DNA from: a virus
Lineage: Duplodnaviria; Caudoviricetes
IMG/VR virus record: IMGVR_UViG_3300048861_000079
Location: 1 to 64,000 of that record
Length of the DNA stretch: 64,000 nucleotides
Strand: one strand, 5' to 3'
The notes beneath the pieces were generated by a model. The model was not told the origin of the DNA. It searched no databases and was given only the letters and a program-made list of their open reading frames with translations. The position numbers and the translations under genes are program-made. Shown in pieces: positions 2,930-9,358 of the stretch; the stretch's first letter is position 1, and every line of letters begins with the position of its first letter.

Positions 2930-3208
2930 TCAGAAATCTGGCCCATCATCCGGGAGAACGAACATCTCCACCTCATGGGCGGCATCGACGAATGCGGCGC
3001 GCACATCGGCGACCGTATCGTCGCCACTACCCTCCAGAAATGCCAGGCAAGCCATCAGGGCGGTCGTATAGGCCTCTCCCCTGCCCTCCTTCGGGAAATC
3101 ATACATGAGACACAGCGCCAGGTCCGTCACCATGTAGAGGTGCTTATACTGGCCGAGCTTCAATTCCACATTAATATCAGGGACAGGTGCGTTGCGTTCC
3201 ATGGACAA
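2930..3208 (-). CDS. DUF982-family protein
   Basis: Pattern AL..C...L.G....ADVRAAFVDAA.E typical of rhizobial DUF982. Confidence 0.7.
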   Translation of the reverse strand: MSMERNAPVPDINVELKLGQYKHLYMVTDLALCLMYDFPKEGRGEAYTTALMACLAFLEGSGDDTVADVRAAFVDAAHEVEMFVLPDDGPDF

Positions 3209-3257
3209 AACCTCAATTTCCGGCTACGTCATATCGTGAACGGATGAGGAACACCAG

Positions 3258-3491
3258 ATGACCATTCGCTTGCCGCGCCAGATCACACCCTATGCCGACC
3301 GAGACCTCGACTGCCAGGCAGCCCTTGAGGATACCTTCAAGACGATCCTCGGATTGGCAGAACGCGCCGGGTGGACCAAGACGGAAGCCGCGGCCGCCAT
3401 ACAGGAGCTCGCCTTCGCGCACCTCGCGGCGGAGGAAGCCAATACCCTCACCGAGCTCGCCACCCTCCAAGCCGGATTGACCAAGCACTAA
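3258..3491 (+). CDS. Small rhizobial-type hypothetical protein
   Basis: GAGGA SD; DRDLDCQ.ALE...GW..E motif. Confidence 0.7.
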   Translation: MTIRLPRQITPYADRDLDCQAALEDTFKTILGLAERAGWTKTEAAAAIQELAFAHLAAEEANTLTELATLQAGLTKH

Positions 3492-3493
3492 CC

Positions 3494-3637
3494 ATGGACC
3501 ACGCTACCCTCTTCCTGGTGTGGTTCTTCGGGCTCTTCGTCACCACGATCCTCTCCGTCAAGATCGGCGCCTTCTGGGCCGTCTTCGGATTCATCTTCCT
3601 CCTCATCCATGGACTCTGGGCCGGACGCAGGAAATAA
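3494..3637 (+). CDS. Small membrane protein (47 aa)
   Basis: MDHATLFLVW... two hydrophobic segments, basic C-terminus. Confidence 0.6.
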   Translation: MDHATLFLVWFFGLFVTTILSVKIGAFWAVFGFIFLLIHGLWAGRRK

Positions 3638-3649
3638 ACCATAGGTAGG

Positions 3650-4470
3650 TTGTCACCGGTTGACACTCAACCGCCCAAGCGACAACAAAAGGGAAAGCCG
3701 CGCCAGGCCAGACCACCGGAGTGCCAATCTCCGGACAACCAAATGACAATCCCAAGCACCGCTCACCACCCGGCAAACATACCGCTACGTTGACAGAGCT
3801 TTACCTTTGCTTGTCGCTTTGACCCCGAAATCAGGTTTTTCGGCAAAACGTCAACATGAGCACACGCTAATCCTCAAAGAACAAAACGCTCACAGAAGCG
3901 CACTGAGAGCGACCGTCGATCAAAACGCTGAGAGACACGCAAACAATCAAAGGAACGCGTCACAGCTCAACCTCGAGCGAACCTGGAAGCGCTGCACCCC
4001 TAAGCGAAAAACATATTCGGGCGACAGACAGAGAGAGCGCTATAGACAGGTGCGCACGAAGGGAGAGGGTATGCGTAAGCGAGAGCTGCACACGTAGAGG
4101 GGACCAGAAGCGAGCGCAGCGAGCGGATACTGTAGAGAGACGGGCGAATAGCGGGAGATAGTCAGAGAAAGCGAGACATAGTGAGGAAGGAGGATGGTTG
4201 CCGCGCCGTGGTTATCCATGCCTCTCCATAAAGCCCCAAGACCTCCCGCCCTGACCCATGGAGACGATCGCCCTTCCGACGCCTGTTGCTCTCCACACGA
4301 GCCTATGCGACAAGCAAATCAGATTTTGAGCACTGTCACCTGGAGTGCTCACAAGAGGCGCCGAGCAATCGGCTGCCCTCTCTCTAATGTTGCTGAGCCG
4401 GCAATCAGGTGTTAGCCGGACACCTCCTAAAGGGCGCTTGTGCAGGTGACTGCCGGCGCCCTTCTTTTTG
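3650..4470 (+). ncRNA. Candidate structured non-coding region/RNA
   Basis: About 820 bp without a credible ORF; several hairpins, T-poor plus strand over much of it, terminator-like end at about 4430-4470. Confidence 0.3.
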
Positions 4471-4524
4471 GTCTGAGCGTGCCCTTTTCCGCAGCCGGGA
4501 GCATGAGCTTCCCTTTTCATAAAA

Positions 4525-4584
4525 GTCCGTTCGTAGTCTATTTATAGATATTATATAAACCTTACATATAGACGACGGATGGAC
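4525..4584. promoter_or_regulatory. Bipartite inverted-arm site S1 (TCGTAGTCTA...TAGACGAC)
   Basis: Inverted arms around an AT-rich core; related sites at 18202 and 44637. Confidence 0.6.
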
Positions 4585-4791
4585 AATTATGCCGAAGGGA
4601 AGACCTCCGGCTGCGTTCCCATGGGTTTCCAAGGTTATCCATGGGTCCAGCTGCGGGTGGCGGCTCCCTGCCGTGTATTGCCCTGCCTCTCCATGCGATA
4701 TCCCTGCCGACTTTGTGCGTGCCCTGCAGTATTCTCTAATCATCGAAAGCGCAACGACTTTCGAAGAGCAACACACAACGGAGAGAATACT

Positions 4792-5655
4792 ATGACCCGC
4801 AAGAACAAAGCCGCCGCTGCCCCCGTCGTTTCTACGCCTGACCTCAACACATTCATGGGTGATATTGCCGGTGCCGCGGAAAACCTCGAAATGGAGGCTC
4901 TGCTGAAGGCCGAGGAGGAAGCTGCCCTTGAGAATGCCCGCCAGGCCGCCGAGGCCGAGGCTCAGGCCAACCAACCACCGGCCGACGAAGAGCCCGCACC
5001 AACCCATGACGAGCCGCTGATGGTGAACCATGTGCCGGGTGACATCAAGGTGATGATCGACAACGTCACGCCGGAGGCACGCCAGCAGAAGGCAGAAGAG
5101 ATCCGTTCAGAGCTTGCTGCCCGTGTCGCCCATGACACCGCCGGCGATCGCTCGATGGGTCCGGGTAAGCAGAACAGCCTGAAGAAGGCGGAGAAGGAAC
5201 TGGCGACGATGGGTGCAGCAGGCTTCTTCTGCGCCGTCGATATCGACCCCTCCTTCATTAACCGCAACATCGCAGGTGACGGGCGCTTCAACGTCTACGC
5301 CCTCGACAAGATCCGCGACCTGATCAGTGGCATCGGCGGCGGCTTCGTGCAGAACCCCATCAACCGCGCGGTCATCGCCTCCATGCTGAACTTCCGTGAC
5401 GCCGGTCTGCCGTTCACGATGGCGCACATGCAGGCAGCGATCAGCAGTGGCGTAAAGGTCGAGCGCGCGGTCGCAAAGCACCTGGTCCGGCACACCGTCG
5501 CACCGAGCACGGCACCGACGCAATCCTCGCAGATGTCACACGCCTTGCAGGTGATGGGCATTGCGACGGCGAGCACGATCGGGCGCGTGACCACCTTCAC
5601 GCTCACCGACACGCCACAGACCCGGCGCCTCGAGCAGGTGCTCCGGGCAGCCTGA
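4792..5655 (+). CDS. Hypothetical protein (287 aa), paralog of 7190-7777; possible C-terminal winged helix
   Basis: GGAGAG SD before ATG 4792; shares YA..K..[DE]L...I, N[FL][RK]...FT.A...A.IS and T..[AT]Q......AL motifs with the 7190 protein. Confidence 0.8.
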   Translation: MTRKNKAAAAPVVSTPDLNTFMGDIAGAAENLEMEALLKAEEEAALENARQAAEAEAQANQPPADEEPAPTHDEPLMVNHVPGDIKVMIDNVTPEARQQKAEEIRSELAARVAHDTAGDRSMGPGKQNSLKKAEKELATMGAAGFFCAVDIDPSFINRNIAGDGRFNVYALDKIRDLISGIGGGFVQNPINRAVIASMLNFRDAGLPFTMAHMQAAISSGVKVERAVAKHLVRHTVAPSTAPTQSSQMSHALQVMGIATASTIGRVTTFTLTDTPQTRRLEQVLRAA

Positions 5656-5674
5656 AACCAGAAGGGAGTGGGAG

Positions 5675-5698
5675 AGGGCGCCTGGGGCGTCCTTTTTC
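5675..5698 (+). terminator. Terminator hairpin
   Basis: AGGGCGCC-tg-GGGCGTCCT followed by T-run. Confidence 0.55.
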
Positions 5699-5905
5699 AT
5701 AGGTTTCAGACAGGGGTCGGGGCAGGAACGGCACAGGGAACGGGTTCCGCCGCCGGCCAGGCCACAGGCCATCCGACATTCTGCCAGGCCAACCTGAGGC
5801 CACGGGCGCCCATGGGTCTCCATGGGGACTGCTCTCCCATCCAAGTCACCTGCCGCTATCCGTATGAGCGCTTGCTAATCTTCATTATCAGCAATGGAGA
5901 GTGAC

Positions 5906-6061
5906 ATGACCAAGCTCATCAACGCCTACAAGACCTTCCCGGCAGACATCAAGGAGGACATCAAGGGTGCGCTTCACACCTGGCTCTCGGGTGTGACGGC
6001 TCTCGCCTTGATCGCCACCGTCGCCCTCTACGGGAAGGCGATCGCAGAGGCGCTGCACTAA
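5906..6061 (+). CDS. Small membrane protein (51 aa, MTKLINAYKTF...), not in ORF track
   Basis: GGAGAG SD, ATG 5906, TAA 6059-6061, hydrophobic C-terminal half. Confidence 0.65.
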   Translation: MTKLINAYKTFPADIKEDIKGALHTWLSGVTALALIATVALYGKAIAEALH

Positions 6062-6125
6062 CCTGCCGAAAAATCAGTAAATACTGAATAAAGTAATTCA
6101 GTAAGCAACACACAAGGAGAGACAA

Positions 6126-6467
6126 ATGTCTTACGTAACCGAAGTTTTCATGAACAGGCAGATCGCACAGGCTGCAGACGCGCTCGATCTCATCGAGGCA
6201 TGCAAGACGGCGAAGCTCAAGGAAGCGACAGCGGTCAAGCTCAAGCTCGTGGTTGACGAGATGCAGCGGGCAGCGAAGCGCTTCAAGGATCTCGCGGCAG
6301 ATCAGTCGGTTATGAGCGAGGGCGAGTTCTTCGCGAAAGCACTGGCGCGTGCGCAGGTGATCAAGAACGAGCGGGCAATCATTGCACGGATCGCACGCGA
6401 GAAGCGTGAGCGGGAAGCGGCTGAGCGTGAGGCACTGCAGAAGGAGCTCGCCCTCATCGCAGCGTAA
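6126..6467 (+). CDS. Helical/coiled-coil hypothetical protein; gene nearly CC-free
   Basis: AAGGAG SD; no Pro or Trp; downstream terminator. Confidence 0.8.
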   Translation: MSYVTEVFMNRQIAQAADALDLIEACKTAKLKEATAVKLKLVVDEMQRAAKRFKDLAADQSVMSEGEFFAKALARAQVIKNERAIIARIAREKREREAAEREALQKELALIAA

Positions 6468-6477
6468 CGGTTCAGCG

Positions 6478-6503
6478 ATAGGCGTCTCTTCGGAGGCGTC
6501 TAT
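6478..6503 (+). terminator. Terminator hairpin with TTCG loop
   Basis: ATAGGCGTCTC-ttcg-GAGGCGTCTAT then CTTT. Confidence 0.7.
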
Positions 6504-6723
6504 CTTTGCACCGTGGCCGCAGGGGTCGGAAACGGCGCGGGGTTCAGGAACGGCTTAGGATCATGGGATCCCCAGGCGGGCGGAGAGGAAGGGCGCCCGG
6601 CCGGGGACGGGTAGGGTTCCGCCGATTCCTAAAACCTTCGGTATTGGAATCGGCTTAGGTTCCCCTTCCCCTCTTCCGTCCCCTCCCCTCTCCCAGCCGA
6701 AAACCCTGGCCGGGTGATCCAGC

Positions 6724-6763
6724 CAGGGTTTCAGGAATTCAGGATTTATGGATTTCAGGGATT
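6724..6763. repeat. 5 x 8-bp direct repeat (CAGGATTT-like), centromere-like
   Basis: CAGGGTTT CAGGAATT CAGGATTT ATGGATTT CAGGGATT. Confidence 0.7.
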
Positions 6764-6955
6764 TTCCTTCTTGCAGTAGGCGGTAGTGGAGATCGTCAGC
6801 CCTGCCGGCAGCTTGTTGGTCGACGGCGTGAAGGCATCGACATAAGCCTGGCAGTCGGTCTGGGTGAGAAGGTGGTCGGCGATCATTTCGTCCGAGGTCG
6901 CCGGCTTTCCGGACACTGCGGTCCAGGTGGCTATGATCAAGGCGAAGGTCGGCAT
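6755..6955 (-). CDS. Small putatively exported protein with two Cys
   Basis: Hydrophobic N-terminus, C...C pair. Confidence 0.5.
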   Translation of the reverse strand: MPTFALIIATWTAVSGKPATSDEMIADHLLTQTDCQAYVDAFTPSTNKLPAGLTISTTAYCKKENP

Positions 6956-7149
6956 CAGTATGCCCAGCCCCAGGCCTTCCGGCCAGTGGCAAGGATGAAG
7001 CGCTTGGAGATCCAGAGGAAGCCATGACGGCTAAGCTCCATGCGCGGCGGATAGAACGGATTGGATTTGAACACCATGGGAACGGCTCGCATTTCAGGTG
7101 GAGAGTGGCGAGGAGGGCGCCAGGGACGCCCCGTAGGGCTTTCTGATGT

Positions 7150-7174
7150 AGCGAGCGCTTATGCAGCGCTCGCT
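7150..7174. terminator. Perfect hairpin downstream of the GG/CC-free gene
   Basis: AGCGAGCGCT-tatgc-AGCGCTCGCT; no clear U-tract. Confidence 0.5.
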
Positions 7175-7189
7175 TATGTAAGACGCTGC

Positions 7190-7777
7190 TTATGCAGCGT
7201 CTTCGTTCTCGTCTTCGCTCGTCTCGAAAGCACTCATGTCGATTTCGAGTTTCTTAGCGAGCGCGTAAGCGATCTCGTTTAGCTCGATTTCGTATGTGTC
7301 TTTCAGCGTTGCGTGCTCTTTGAGAATGTTGAGCGTCAACAGAGCGTCGATTGACGTCTGATGCTGCGCGTTCACAGTCTTTTCATCAAGAATAGCGCTG
7401 CGAACGAATATGACGTTCTGCTTTTCGTCAGTCGTCTTGTAGTCGCGTGAGATCGATGCTTTAGCATCTGCTTTCGTAAACAGCATGTTCTCACGCTTCA
7501 GATTGATGACAGTGCGCAGCATCGCAACAGTGTTCTTTTCGAGATTTGCGTCTTTGTGATCAAAGATCGCTGCGACGAGTTCAACAGCTTTGAACGTCGC
7601 ATACATAGCGCGCAGCAAGCGCTCTGCGCTGACGTTGCAGCGTTCGAGCATCGTTTCAACTGCTTGCTGCGAGACAATAGCATCGCAGCGCTTCAAGCGT
7701 TGAACGTTAGAAGAAGTCGAGTTCTTTGCAGCTGCAGCAGCGATGCGCGAAGAAAAAGCAGTGTTATAAGCGTTCAT
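7190..7777 (-). CDS. Hypothetical protein (195 aa) with no Gly/Pro/Trp, encoded by GG/CC-free DNA; paralog of 4792-5655
   Basis: Intact ORF; GAGAGA SD-like sequence; aligns by eye with the 4792 protein. Confidence 0.85.
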   Translation of the reverse strand: MNAYNTAFSSRIAAAAAKNSTSSNVQRLKRCDAIVSQQAVETMLERCNVSAERLLRAMYATFKAVELVAAIFDHKDANLEKNTVAMLRTVINLKRENMLFTKADAKASISRDYKTTDEKQNVIFVRSAILDEKTVNAQHQTSIDALLTLNILKEHATLKDTYEIELNEIAYALAKKLEIDMSAFETSEDENEDAA

Positions 7778-8046
7778 GTTCTTATCTCTCTATTTGAGCG
7801 TTGCTTGCTCGTTTCGTTAATCAGTGCGATTTGTTGTTCGTCATCTGATAAATATAGTTATAAGCGATGTCTTAGACGGATTCTATAGCGCTGATGGGGA
7901 TGCCTTCTGTGTCGACCGAGCTCCGGTGAGCCAAACCTCCCATGTCACTTTCCCGGATCTCAGATGCGCGATAGTCGCCTCCCCTATCCCGGCCAGCGCT
8001 ATCCCGAACCCCAATCCTCCCACGCCGATCTGCCCGATCAGTAAGT

Positions 8047-8078
8047 CCTGAAATCCATATTTCCGTAATTCAGGATCT
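8047..8078. repeat. 4 x 8-bp centromere-like repeats
   Basis: CCTGAAAT CCATATTT CCGTAATT CAGGATCT. Confidence 0.55.
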
Positions 8079-8085
8079 CCAGGGC

Positions 8086-8114
8086 TTGACTGTAAGTAAG
8101 TGTTTACTTACACA
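8086..8114 (+). promoter_or_regulatory. Sigma70-like tRNA promoter with operator palindrome (8092-8111) in the spacer
   Basis: TTGACT-17-TACACA; GTAAGTAAGTGTTTACTTAC. Confidence 0.75.
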
Positions 8115-8125
8115 TGGATCTCAGA

Positions 8126-8202
8126 CGCGGGATAGCTCAGCCAGGTAGAGCGGTGGCCTCATAAGCCACAGGTCATGGGATCGAAGCCCATTCCCGCAAC
8201 CA
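8126..8202 (+). tRNA. tRNA with CAT anticodon, initiator (fMet)-like but atypical
   Basis: Cloverleaf CGCGGGA/TCCCGCA, C1:A72 mismatch, loop CTCATAA, encoded CCA; T-loop ATCGAAG. Confidence 0.9.
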
Positions 8203-8206
8203 ACAT

Positions 8207-8282
8207 TGGTTCGTAGCTCAGTTGGGAGAGCGGGTGACTGTTAATCACCGGGTCGCAGGTTCGAGCCCTGCCGAACCAGCCA
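8207..8282 (+). tRNA. tRNA-Asn(GTT)
   Basis: Canonical cloverleaf TGGTTCG/CGAACCA, loop CTGTTAA, TTCGAGC T-loop, CCA. Confidence 0.95.
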
Positions 8283-8297
8283 ACCAAAGGCTAGTCT

Positions 8298-8822
8298 ATG
8301 ATCCCTCCCTACCGTAATGCCGTCTGCCGGGGCTCTCTTGCCCTTGGAACCGCTTGCCGCCGCTGCGAGCGCTGTGATGCCGAACGCGAGCAGATGCGCG
8401 CGCAGCAGGTCTCTGCCGAGAAGTCCGATGCTCATCAGCCGACGATCAACGTCGTCGTCAATGCAACGGAGTTGAAGGCTGCGCCTGATATCGCCCAAAA
8501 GGTCAAGGACGCGCTGGCGGGCTCGATGCGCTTCCACAGTGGCGGTGTCGCTGGTCTGCCTGTCAAGGGCTACAAGAAGGAGCAGCCCGCGCACCTGGTC
8601 GCCCTGGTGAACGAGAACAAGCTTCTCGAGGAACTCGTGCTGCGTCAGATCACCTGCCACGTCAGGACCGACGGCATTGACCAGCGCTTCGTCGCCCTCG
8701 CCCGCACCAAGATCCAGGAAGCCTTCATGGACCTCAACCGGGCCGTCTTCCAGCCGCAGCGCATCGAGGACATGGACGGCACCACGGCGCTGATCGTCAA
8801 GCTTTTGGACCGGAGCAACTGA
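8298..8822 (+). CDS. Acb2/Tad1-like nucleotide sponge domain with Cys-rich N-terminal extension
   Basis: GLPVKGY...VALVNENK..EE...QRFVALARTKIQEAFMDLNRAVFQP resembles the Acb2 pattern; CRRCERC N-terminus. Confidence 0.6.
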   Translation: MIPPYRNAVCRGSLALGTACRRCERCDAEREQMRAQQVSAEKSDAHQPTINVVVNATELKAAPDIAQKVKDALAGSMRFHSGGVAGLPVKGYKKEQPAHLVALVNENKLLEELVLRQITCHVRTDGIDQRFVALARTKIQEAFMDLNRAVFQPQRIEDMDGTTALIVKLLDRSN

Positions 8823-9358
8823 TGTCCGTGATCGTCTACGACGTCAGGAACGGCCTGATGTGCTCTGACACCCGCGCCTATGGCGGCGACAGCCACCCGA
8901 TCGGCAACAAGCGCAAGATCCATCGCCTATCCGACGGCTCGCTGCTGGGCATGTCCTCTTCGCAGCCGGGAGTGCCTGAGGAGTTCAAGGCCTGGATTGA
9001 GCGTGGCGCCAAGCTCGAGGACTACGGCCCCACCTCGCCCGATATCGAAGCGCTCCTGGTCAAGCCCAATGGCGACGTCTTCCTGTTTTCGGACAGTTAC
9101 TACGCCGCTGGTCCTCTGACTGGCGACGTGTTCACCGTTGGGTCCGGCAAGAAGTATGCGCTGGGCGCCCTACGTGCCGGCGCTGACGCGCAGCGGGCCG
9201 TAGAGGTGGCCTGTGAGTGCGATACGATGTGCGGCGGCCCTGTGACCGCTCTCAAGCTGTTCGAAGCCACCCCTGAGCCTCCTGTTCCGGTTTCTGGCGC
9301 CGTGAGCGTTGTAGACGAAGCCATTGACTGGCTCGCTGCTCCTGAAACCCTGAATTAA
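8822..9358 (+). CDS. HslV/proteasome-beta-like Ntn peptidase
   Basis: N-terminal SVIV...SDTR; GSGKKYALGAL; D..CGG. Confidence 0.75.
   Translation: MSVIVYDVRNGLMCSDTRAYGGDSHPIGNKRKIHRLSDGSLLGMSSSQPGVPEEFKAWIERGAKLEDYGPTSPDIEALLVKPNGDVFLFSDSYYAAGPLTGDVFTVGSGKKYALGALRAGADAQRAVEVACECDTMCGGPVTALKLFEATPEPPVPVSGAVSVVDEAIDWLAAPETLN

Follow-up and report, generated by a model that had tools for sequence, protein, structure and literature searches.

A gene without GG or CC and its ordinarily encoded paralogue are kept together in Rhizobium phage-plasmids

We analysed a 64,000-nt stretch (the window, G+C ∼60%) of the 86,931-nt viral record IMGVR_UViG_3300048861_000079, a ∼74% complete element of the RHEph10/pLM21S1/B1VFA type of Rhizobium phage-plasmids. 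Two of its genes are paralogues of very different composition: the gene for P0001 lacks the dinucleotides GG and CC altogether, and the gene for P0002 is encoded in the ordinary way. We confirm this observation of a GG/CC-free paralogue, and offer a mechanism for it as a hypothesis. The two genes are convergent, with coordinates and frames as given in the original prediction, and are not adjacent but separated by a gap of 1.5 kb (Table 1). Below, we call the relatives of P0001 the free family and those of P0002 the ordinary family.

When P0001 and P0002 were compared on their own by BLASTP, the similarity was not significant (E = 0.43). The by-eye match on which their paralogy had originally been proposed could therefore have been due to chance, and profiles were needed. 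We gathered 12 close homologues of P0001 and >100 of P0002. Comparison with hhalign of 12 P0001-family with 67 P0002-family sequences gave 94.6% (E = 6.9e-8), and 60 diverse sequences free of Gly, Pro and Trp, compared with 67 ordinary ones, gave 99.6% (E = 4.5e-24) over 173 columns, which bears the proposal out. The three motif pairs picked out by eye (YATFKAVELVA/YALDKIRDLIS, LFTKADAKASIS/PFTMAHMQAAIS and VRSAILDEKTVNAQHQTSIDALLTLNI/VRHTVAPSTAPTQSSQMSHALQVMGI) all stand in the same register in the hhalign alignment. Across 37 loci the families also recognised each other: the free-family hidden Markov model (HMM) matched the ordinary open reading frames (ORFs) with E values of 1e-13 to 1e-28, and the ordinary-family HMM matched the free ORFs with E values down to 1e-39. 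Among 1.84 billion representative proteins, the P0001-family profile found 73, of which ∼60 have no Gly, Pro or Trp; its weakest matches were proteins of 278-401 aa with ordinary composition, aligned in their C-terminal halves. On these sequence profiles, P0001 and P0002 are established as distant homologues. The suspicion that the pair is unlike any recognised family also held up, as Pfam, PHROGs, NCBIfam and PADLOC contain no family for either protein (the lone match, to AriAB, was weak, E = 0.018) and profile searches of PDB sequences returned only noise for both, e.g. cytochrome b562 fusions. The ESM Atlas yielded only unnamed clusters, one of which, of 207 aa and 747 members, is shared by P0001 and P0002.

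The absence of GG and CC is not limited to the coding sequence but defines an island of 741 nt. By comparison, the next longest GG/CC-free run in the whole record is 86 nt, and the longest run free of any other complementary dinucleotide pair is at most 136 nt. Elsewhere in the record, 14% of all dinucleotides are GG or CC; the depletion is confined to the island, and a genome-wide motif depletion test came out negative. The island begins directly past the −35 box of the P0001 promoter, takes in the −10 box, a leader of ∼70 nt, the P0001 ORF and a 3′ hairpin, and ends just beyond this hairpin; spanning everything from promoter spacer to hairpin, it therefore corresponds to one self-contained transcription unit. 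The position of the promoter is inferred from the sequence and from the aligned upstream regions of 10 relatives, in which the −35-like box reads TTGCTC, TTGTTC or TTGAAC (TAGAAT here). The last CC (7879-7878) directly adjoins this box. A scan for promoter and terminator consensus sequences performed no better than on shuffled sequences. The hairpin, as read from the sequence, is rich in G+C yet contains neither GG nor CC. Just outside the 5′ edge of the island lies a conserved non-coding block (7890-7960, − strand) consisting of GAGGAGGWTAGG, ∼30 nt and GAAGGCATCCCCATCA. It is also present at the matching place in six of the loci described below (L001, L008, L009, L013, L028 and L041), has been conserved even where the proteins of the elements share no more than 40-50% identity, and may be a regulator site or a small RNA.

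Back-translation of P0001 with the codon usage of the genome gave an expectation of 54±5 GG/CC (minimum 36 in 5000 trials), versus none observed. The codons GCC, ACC, TCC, CGG and AGG are never used in the gene; silent sites have thus been purged as well, and the constraint must act on the nucleic acid and not on the protein. In the protein, Gly, Pro and Trp are all missing, and the alignment of the two families shows what has taken their place. G256, present in all 67 ordinary copies, is Asn in 46 of the 60 free copies, and G205 is replaced by Asn or Asp. Ala stands at the positions of P153 and P275 (at the latter also Glu), and Trp has given way to Tyr or Phe.

P0002 has 34 Gly, Pro or Trp among its 287 residues, and the GG+CC density of its gene (0.164) is normal for the genome. 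Residues 1-90 form an acidic coiled-coil N-terminal extension with a net charge of −12, close to the median of −12.5 for the first 90 residues in the ordinary family. Composition and charge counts agree with the original description of P0002 as rich in Gly/Pro and GG/CC and acidic at its N-terminus, and of P0001 as having none of these features. In AlphaFold2 (AF2) models, with a predicted local distance difference test (pLDDT) score of 92 for P0002 (67-row alignment) and 90 for P0001 (12 rows), helices and strands succeed each other in the same order, starting at residue 94 of P0002 and residue 3 of P0001, and form a helical core and a C-terminal winged helix. Beyond this common part, P0002 is modelled with a long acidic helix (18-59) and a linker, and P0001 as core and winged helix only, followed by a short acidic tail. 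The winged-helix elements, a three-helix bundle with a beta-hairpin wing behind it, are H81-95, H102-109, H132-148, E152-154 and E161-164 in the model of P0001, and H189-203, H210-217, H238-254, E258-263 and E266-271 in that of P0002.

A structural comparison against 48,161 PDB representatives identified the last ∼100 residues of both models as a winged helix (Z 7-8.5, root-mean-square deviation 2.1-2.9 Å over 75-86 residues). The best 50 matches per model were all winged-helix domains, with Z up to 8.1 and 8.5, and included MarR, ArsR, PadR, TubR, ORC and kleisin domains. For these predicted structures the Z values name only the fold, not the family; neither protein matches the curated winged helix-turn-helix (HTH) sequence families (MarR, PadR, ArsR etc.) of Pfam, NCBIfam and PHROG. 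Foldseek found nothing in the PDB at E ≤ 0.001 for the P0002 model. In BFVD, A0A7S5RLS2 and A0A6J7WLV9 were the best matches of both models, the former with E values of 9e-10 and 1e-8 and template-modelling (TM) scores by target of 0.83 and 0.80, and nothing else was significant. The AF2 models and their shared matches are thus in line with the proposed single fold, ending in a winged helix, for both proteins. The kleisin domains (Scc1, MukF and JetA; Z 7.4-8.1) scored no better than MarR or ArsR. The record has a single SMC_N-like ORF (G000:C1:76334-78133, +, 710 aa; weak and below the cut-off), which is ∼70 kb from the pair and is probably an SbcC/Rad50-like ATPase.

Among the best conserved stretches of both families is the motif T-x-x-(T/A)-Q-x-(S/Q) at the start of the recognition helix. 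T240, T243, Q244 and S246 are invariant in the ordinary family. T134, A137, Q138 and Q140 are invariant in the 12-member sub-alignment of the free family; over all 60 free sequences, only Q138 is near-invariant. Both proteins further end in Ala-Ala (window positions 5647-5652 in P0002 and 7193-7198 in P0001), an ending shared by 57 of the 67 ordinary copies and by 10 of the 12 close free ones, but only by 15 of 60 members of the wider free family. An Ala-Ala C-terminus serves as a ClpXP signal in alphaproteobacteria, and the ends of both families are a possible ClpXP-type degron.

Phage-plasmids of the RHEph10/pLM21S1/B1VFA type are siphophages of 115-122 kb that encode RepC and ParA (PMC5537653, PMC12509600), and in B1VFA the ends are fixed and carry a terminal repeat of 3,605 bp (PMC12509600). 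The records of B1VFA and V1VFA-S begin at different points, and no terminal repeat was found in the 86.9-kb record studied here. Co-occurrence of the two genes across such elements had been suggested as a check of the original prediction, and proved to be nearly complete. All 10 Rhizobium phage records that hold one copy also hold the other, ∼2 kb away; cultured carriers include B1VFA, V1VFA-S, RHEph10 and RHph_X66. Starting from the ordinary family, 29 of 30 IMG/VR loci have a free-family ORF 1-6 kb downstream, and the ordinary copy is present in 10/10 loci found from the free side. Overall, the pair occurs in 30 of the 31 IMG/VR contigs that we examined. The annotation of RHEph10 can be corrected on this basis: the coding sequence gp148 (L002 4884-5564; JX483881 99105-99785) was called on the wrong strand, over a P0001 homologue on the opposite strand that is not annotated.

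How strictly GG and CC are banned differs between loci. Across 37 loci (53-67% G+C), the free gene has no GG or CC in 24, 1-3 in 6, 6-10 in 4 and 30-66 in 3 (L010, L023 and L016), and the ordinary copies have 71-191. Distant members of the free family are encoded on contigs of 1-3 kb, all of them GG/CC-free. In about two-thirds of loci the free copy is convergent with the ordinary one, and otherwise co-directional; the co-directional arrangement was counted in 9 of the 37 loci. Island length ranges from 400 to 1531 nt, and islands of 1.4-1.5 kb include one or two additional small ORFs that likewise lack Gly, Pro and Trp (L035 10484-11116; L025 10777-11095; L004 1425-1772). P0001 is thus the fixed member of a GG/CC-free cassette with otherwise variable content. 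A maximum-likelihood tree of 67 cores contains one branch that parts all ordinary from all free copies (Shimodaira–Hasegawa-like approximate likelihood ratio test, SH-aLRT, 100). On its two sides the subclades correspond, with longer branches for the free copies. The single separating branch and the corresponding subclades point to a single old event, a duplication or a recoding, after which the two copies were inherited jointly.

The same region carries phased arrays of the motif CC-N2-GG. In the window, two arrays of three sites each and a lone CCATGG lie around the pair (Table 1), and an AT-rich palindromic stretch (4518-4591) is situated directly upstream of the first array. CCATGG is clustered here, with 12 of the 22 copies of the record within its first 7.1 kb; in relatives, the pair region holds 27/28, 21/25, 19/22, 15/15 and, in RHEph10, 10/10 copies. 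The B1VFA group has CCTAGG and CCGCGG instead, with 9 of 11 CCTAGG in gaps of the pair region. In lineages with CCATGG, the recognition helix is near-identical between the two copies. The arrays keep their 10-bp register and include degenerate members such as CCGTGG, CCACGG and CCAAGG. Over 32 loci, distances between CCNNGG sites in the pair regions peak at 10 (201 pairs), 20 (100) and 30-31 bp (43 and 39) above a baseline of 10-30, and 201 phased pairs fall inside the pair regions versus 5 outside. As a check of the motif that does not presuppose it, we determined the composition of the unit that follows two phased sites. C reached frequencies of.55/.59 at +10/+11 and G of.57/.60 at +14/+15, with centre and spacer near background. 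The informative letters of the arrays are therefore exactly the two dinucleotides banned from the island. Arrays are found upstream of the ordinary gene and just after it, before the next ORF; where the P0001 gene is co-directional, an array also directly precedes the island. As short repeats phased by about one helical turn and placed beside the gene and its promoters, these arrays resemble those of array-binding plasmid regulators of the StbA, TubR and omega type.

Some hints on expression came from a soil metatranscriptome, in which three contigs are identical to the window at 7208-7436, 7508-7658 and 7690-7840, all inside the island; the last of these ends near the inferred start site of P0001. 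Such contigs tell nothing about level, strand or silence in other places, and an RNA library may contain DNA; we take them only as a hint that the island is transcribed. The rest of 4500-8300 had no contigs in run X2, and this was not counted as evidence since contigs cannot show silence. Nearly all genes of these elements are on one strand. The reverse strand holds RepC, ParA, a helicase and, in most lineages, P0001, a placement that would suit a gene of the plasmid state.

The surroundings of the pair are summarised in Table 1. Between the two genes there are two small ORFs on the + strand and another ∼0.7 kb; Pfam gives no family above cut-off for either ORF. The coding strand of the 113-aa ORF is CC-free over 312 nt (6140-6451), the second longest CC-free run of the record, with abundant GG. 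We dropped this run as a clue, as it is not kept in B1VFA, RHEph10 or X66. Two G-rich elements that resemble each other (CAGGGGTCGG...GGAACGG...) are located behind the stop codons of P0002 (5705-5760, +) and of the 113-aa ORF (6515-6570, +) and may be shared terminators or elements resembling repetitive extragenic palindromes (REP). On the other side of the island, the 174-aa ORF with an Acb2/Tad1 hairpin domain is likely a sponge for signals of the cyclic-oligonucleotide-based anti-phage signalling system (CBASS) or of Thoeris, which would place counter-defence genes at the flank of the island. The tRNAs for Met and Asn have syntenic counterparts in B1VFA and RHph_X66, where a pseudo or Trp(CCA) tRNA accompanies them, and an Rfam scan of 3000-9000 detected nothing beyond the two tRNAs. 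Further upstream, a 92-aa ORF (2930-3208, −) contains a DUF982 domain (E 2.6e-7, above cut-off).

Table 1. Features around the P0001/P0002 pair (window positions)
Feature	Position	Strand	Description
CCNNGG array	4619-4644		Three sites at exact 10-bp spacing (CCATGG, CCAAGG, CCATGG; 4619/4629/4639), ∼150 nt upstream of P0002 start
P0002 ORF	4792-5655	+	Ordinary copy, 287 aa
CCNNGG array	5800-5825		Three sites at 10-bp spacing (CCACGG, CCATGG, CCATGG; 5800/5810/5820), ∼145 nt past P0002 stop, ∼70 nt before next ORF
Two small ORFs	5894-6061 and 6126-6467	+	55 aa and 113 aa; syntenic with B1VFA_059 and B1VFA_060
Lone CCATGG	7074-7079		59 nt outside the 3′ edge of the island
GG/CC-free island	7138-7878	both	No GG, no CC
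Perfect hairpin	7150-7174	−	10-bp stem, 5-nt loop, 16 nt past P0001 stop; read from sequence
P0001 ORF	7190-7777	−	GG/CC-free copy, 195 aa
Inferred P0001 promoter	7857-7885	−	−35-like box 7885-7880, 17-nt spacer, −10 TATAAC 7862-7857
tRNA-Met(CAT)	8126-8202	+	Between island and next operon
tRNA-Asn(GTT)	8207-8282	+	Between island and next operon
Acb2/Tad1 hairpin-domain ORF	8298-8822	+	174 aa; PF24729, E 4e-11, above cut-off; divergent from P0001, just after the two tRNAs

That free and ordinary copies are both kept implies that something reads the GG/CC step, and that the phage still needs this protein when it does. We tentatively favour a reading, itself somewhat short of probable, in which two winged-helix regulators act on the same DNA, one expressed from a unit out of reach of a GG/CC reader and the other controlled by the arrays. 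Both P0001 and P0002 would read the same DNA, most likely the CC-N2-GG arrays, which appear to occupy promoter and leader regions, both those of the ordinary copy and those of the genes after it, and, in the co-directional case, the place ahead of the island. Being behind an array and equipped with the acidic extension and the Ala-Ala end, the ordinary copy would be the regulated version. The free copy would be insulated, as its transcription unit offers nothing to a CC/GG reader, and would still be made when genes bearing arrays or GG/CC are shut. The reader could be the winged-helix family, which would itself spread from the arrays, or some other factor, and P0001 and P0002 together would form a switch or maintenance pair of the plasmid-prophage.

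Several observations weigh against this reading. A total ban on GG and CC far exceeds what is needed for avoiding a 6-bp site. In addition, strictness of the island and presence of arrays do not track cleanly: L034 has a strict island and no array, the near-strict islands of L029 and L031 are accompanied only by CCATGG at loose spacing, arrays coexist with relaxed islands in L010 and L016 (30 and 66 GG/CC), and L023 has lost both. The recognition helix varies along with the dinucleotide at the centre of the array sites, but this is one contrast between lineages and does not reveal the binding paralogue.

It is possible, if rather unlikely, that the reader is external to the pair, namely a host defence or phage takeover activity that is unrelated to these proteins and acts wherever GG/CC occurs. 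Candidates are a nuclease, a system dependent on a protospacer adjacent motif (PAM) of CC or GG, a base-modifying enzyme or a silencing protein. P0001 would then be the early or emergency version and P0002 the one for normal conditions, with the arrays being ordinary operators of another protein. This is in essence the model of the original prediction, in which the GG/CC-free copy would serve an incoming or vulnerable state of the DNA and the ordinary copy would act later. An external reader would account for a ban that extends over both strands of the entire transcription unit, with synonymous and junction sites among those purged, and for its relaxation in three lineages, as expected once the reader is lost. 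The neighbourhood fits as well, given the adjoining Acb2/Tad1 hairpin-domain protein and, in B1VFA, the nicotinamide adenine dinucleotide (NAD) salvage and RtcB genes. However, the remainder of the element has a normal GG/CC density and would stay exposed to a nuclease, and the invariant letters of the arrays would be CC and GG by mere coincidence. Moreover, no candidate reader was found, and the 87-kb record, at 74% completeness, yielded no N6_N4 or C5 methyltransferase family.

The favoured reading of two regulators on shared DNA has a more specific form, which we consider doubtful, in which the winged-helix family itself is the GG/CC reader. It would nucleate on the phased arrays, spread over CC/GG-containing DNA and shut down the neighbourhood, and the stripped copy could neither repress itself nor be repressed by its paralogue. 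If true, a gene would owe its immunity against the products of its own family to its dinucleotide content, which would be a new kind of genetic switch.

We regard it as quite improbable that the two proteins are a replication pair, with P0002 as an initiator on iteron-like arrays that flank its own gene, as in P1 RepA with incC and incA, and P0001 as a competing inhibitor that lacks the N-terminal extension and silences the origin in the plasmid state. The arrays do occur on both sides of the P0002 gene and beside the AT-rich stretch, ORC/Cdc6 domains (Z ∼7) are among the winged-helix matches, P0001 is the core alone, and the elements have their own replisome with no lytic initiator assigned. 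Yet the 10-bp repeat is shorter than usual iterons, and arrays also stand ahead of unrelated small genes and of the island, which is more like operator use. The element has a RepC replicon elsewhere, and the matches to ORC winged helices are no better than those to MarR, ArsR or kleisin. Least probable of all is that there is no interplay, the duplicates having diverged to separate jobs, or one being dispensable, and lying side by side through inherited synteny: although the predicted fold is silent on partners and both the orientation of the free copy and its distance (1 to 6 kb) vary, nearly all elements have retained both copies despite their deep divergence (30-50% identity), with the same recognition-helix motif.

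Our literature search found no paper on GG/CC-free gene islands or on this pair, and the paralogy of free and ordinary copy together with their joint inheritance is the new element of this work. The pair provides a natural control, as the same protein is encoded twice per element, with the ban in force for one copy and not for the other, in dozens of diverged phage-plasmids. Because cultured phages hold the same protein in both coding styles, the question of what reads GG/CC is directly testable. The pair also illustrates how a fold can do without Gly, Pro and Trp. It further ties the island to another feature that awaits explanation, namely the phased arrays, in which the informative letters are those missing from the island.

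Four known systems resemble parts of this arrangement, and none of them is known to combine a transcription unit devoid of a dinucleotide with a paralogue of ordinary composition. StbA of the IncW plasmid R388, a small winged HTH (PadR-II-like) protein, binds short direct-repeat arrays (stbDRs) and is reported to repress several operons and organise the plasmid (bioRxiv 10.1101/2022.04.29.490116). Here too, the arrays are phased at one helical turn and located in promoter regions, and a PadR structure is among the fold matches (Z 6.5-6.6). Unlike StbA, with which they have no sequence family in common (no Pfam match), the proteins described here are two paralogues, one of them from a GG/CC-free gene, with a CC-N2-GG site and a putative array binding. 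Short motifs are also avoided in phages, by restriction-site avoidance and CRISPR PAM depletion, and in mRNAs free of MazF sites (ACA-less). As in these cases, a short word has been purged at the cost of codon and amino-acid choice, leaving a reader nothing; the difference is that the word is a dinucleotide step, that the purge is total on both strands but limited to one transcription unit, and that an unprotected paralogue lies beside it. The first-step-transfer (pre-early) region of T5 is a small self-contained gene set thought to be active before the rest of the genome is safe. B1VFA, with its fixed ends and 3.6-kb terminal repeat (PMC12509600), is comparable to T5 in this respect. In contrast to T5, about two-thirds of the free copies are transcribed against their neighbours, and the elements are also plasmids with RepC and ParA. 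In lambda, finally, CI and Cro are DNA-binding proteins of related fold that choose between prophage and lytic growth on shared sites, from divergent genes with overlapping operators and with a plain HTH. P0001 and P0002 likewise would be two DNA-binding proteins of related fold, whose common sites we infer; they differ from CI and Cro in their winged helix and in lying 1-6 kb apart in convergent or co-directional orientation instead of sharing divergent, overlapping promoters.

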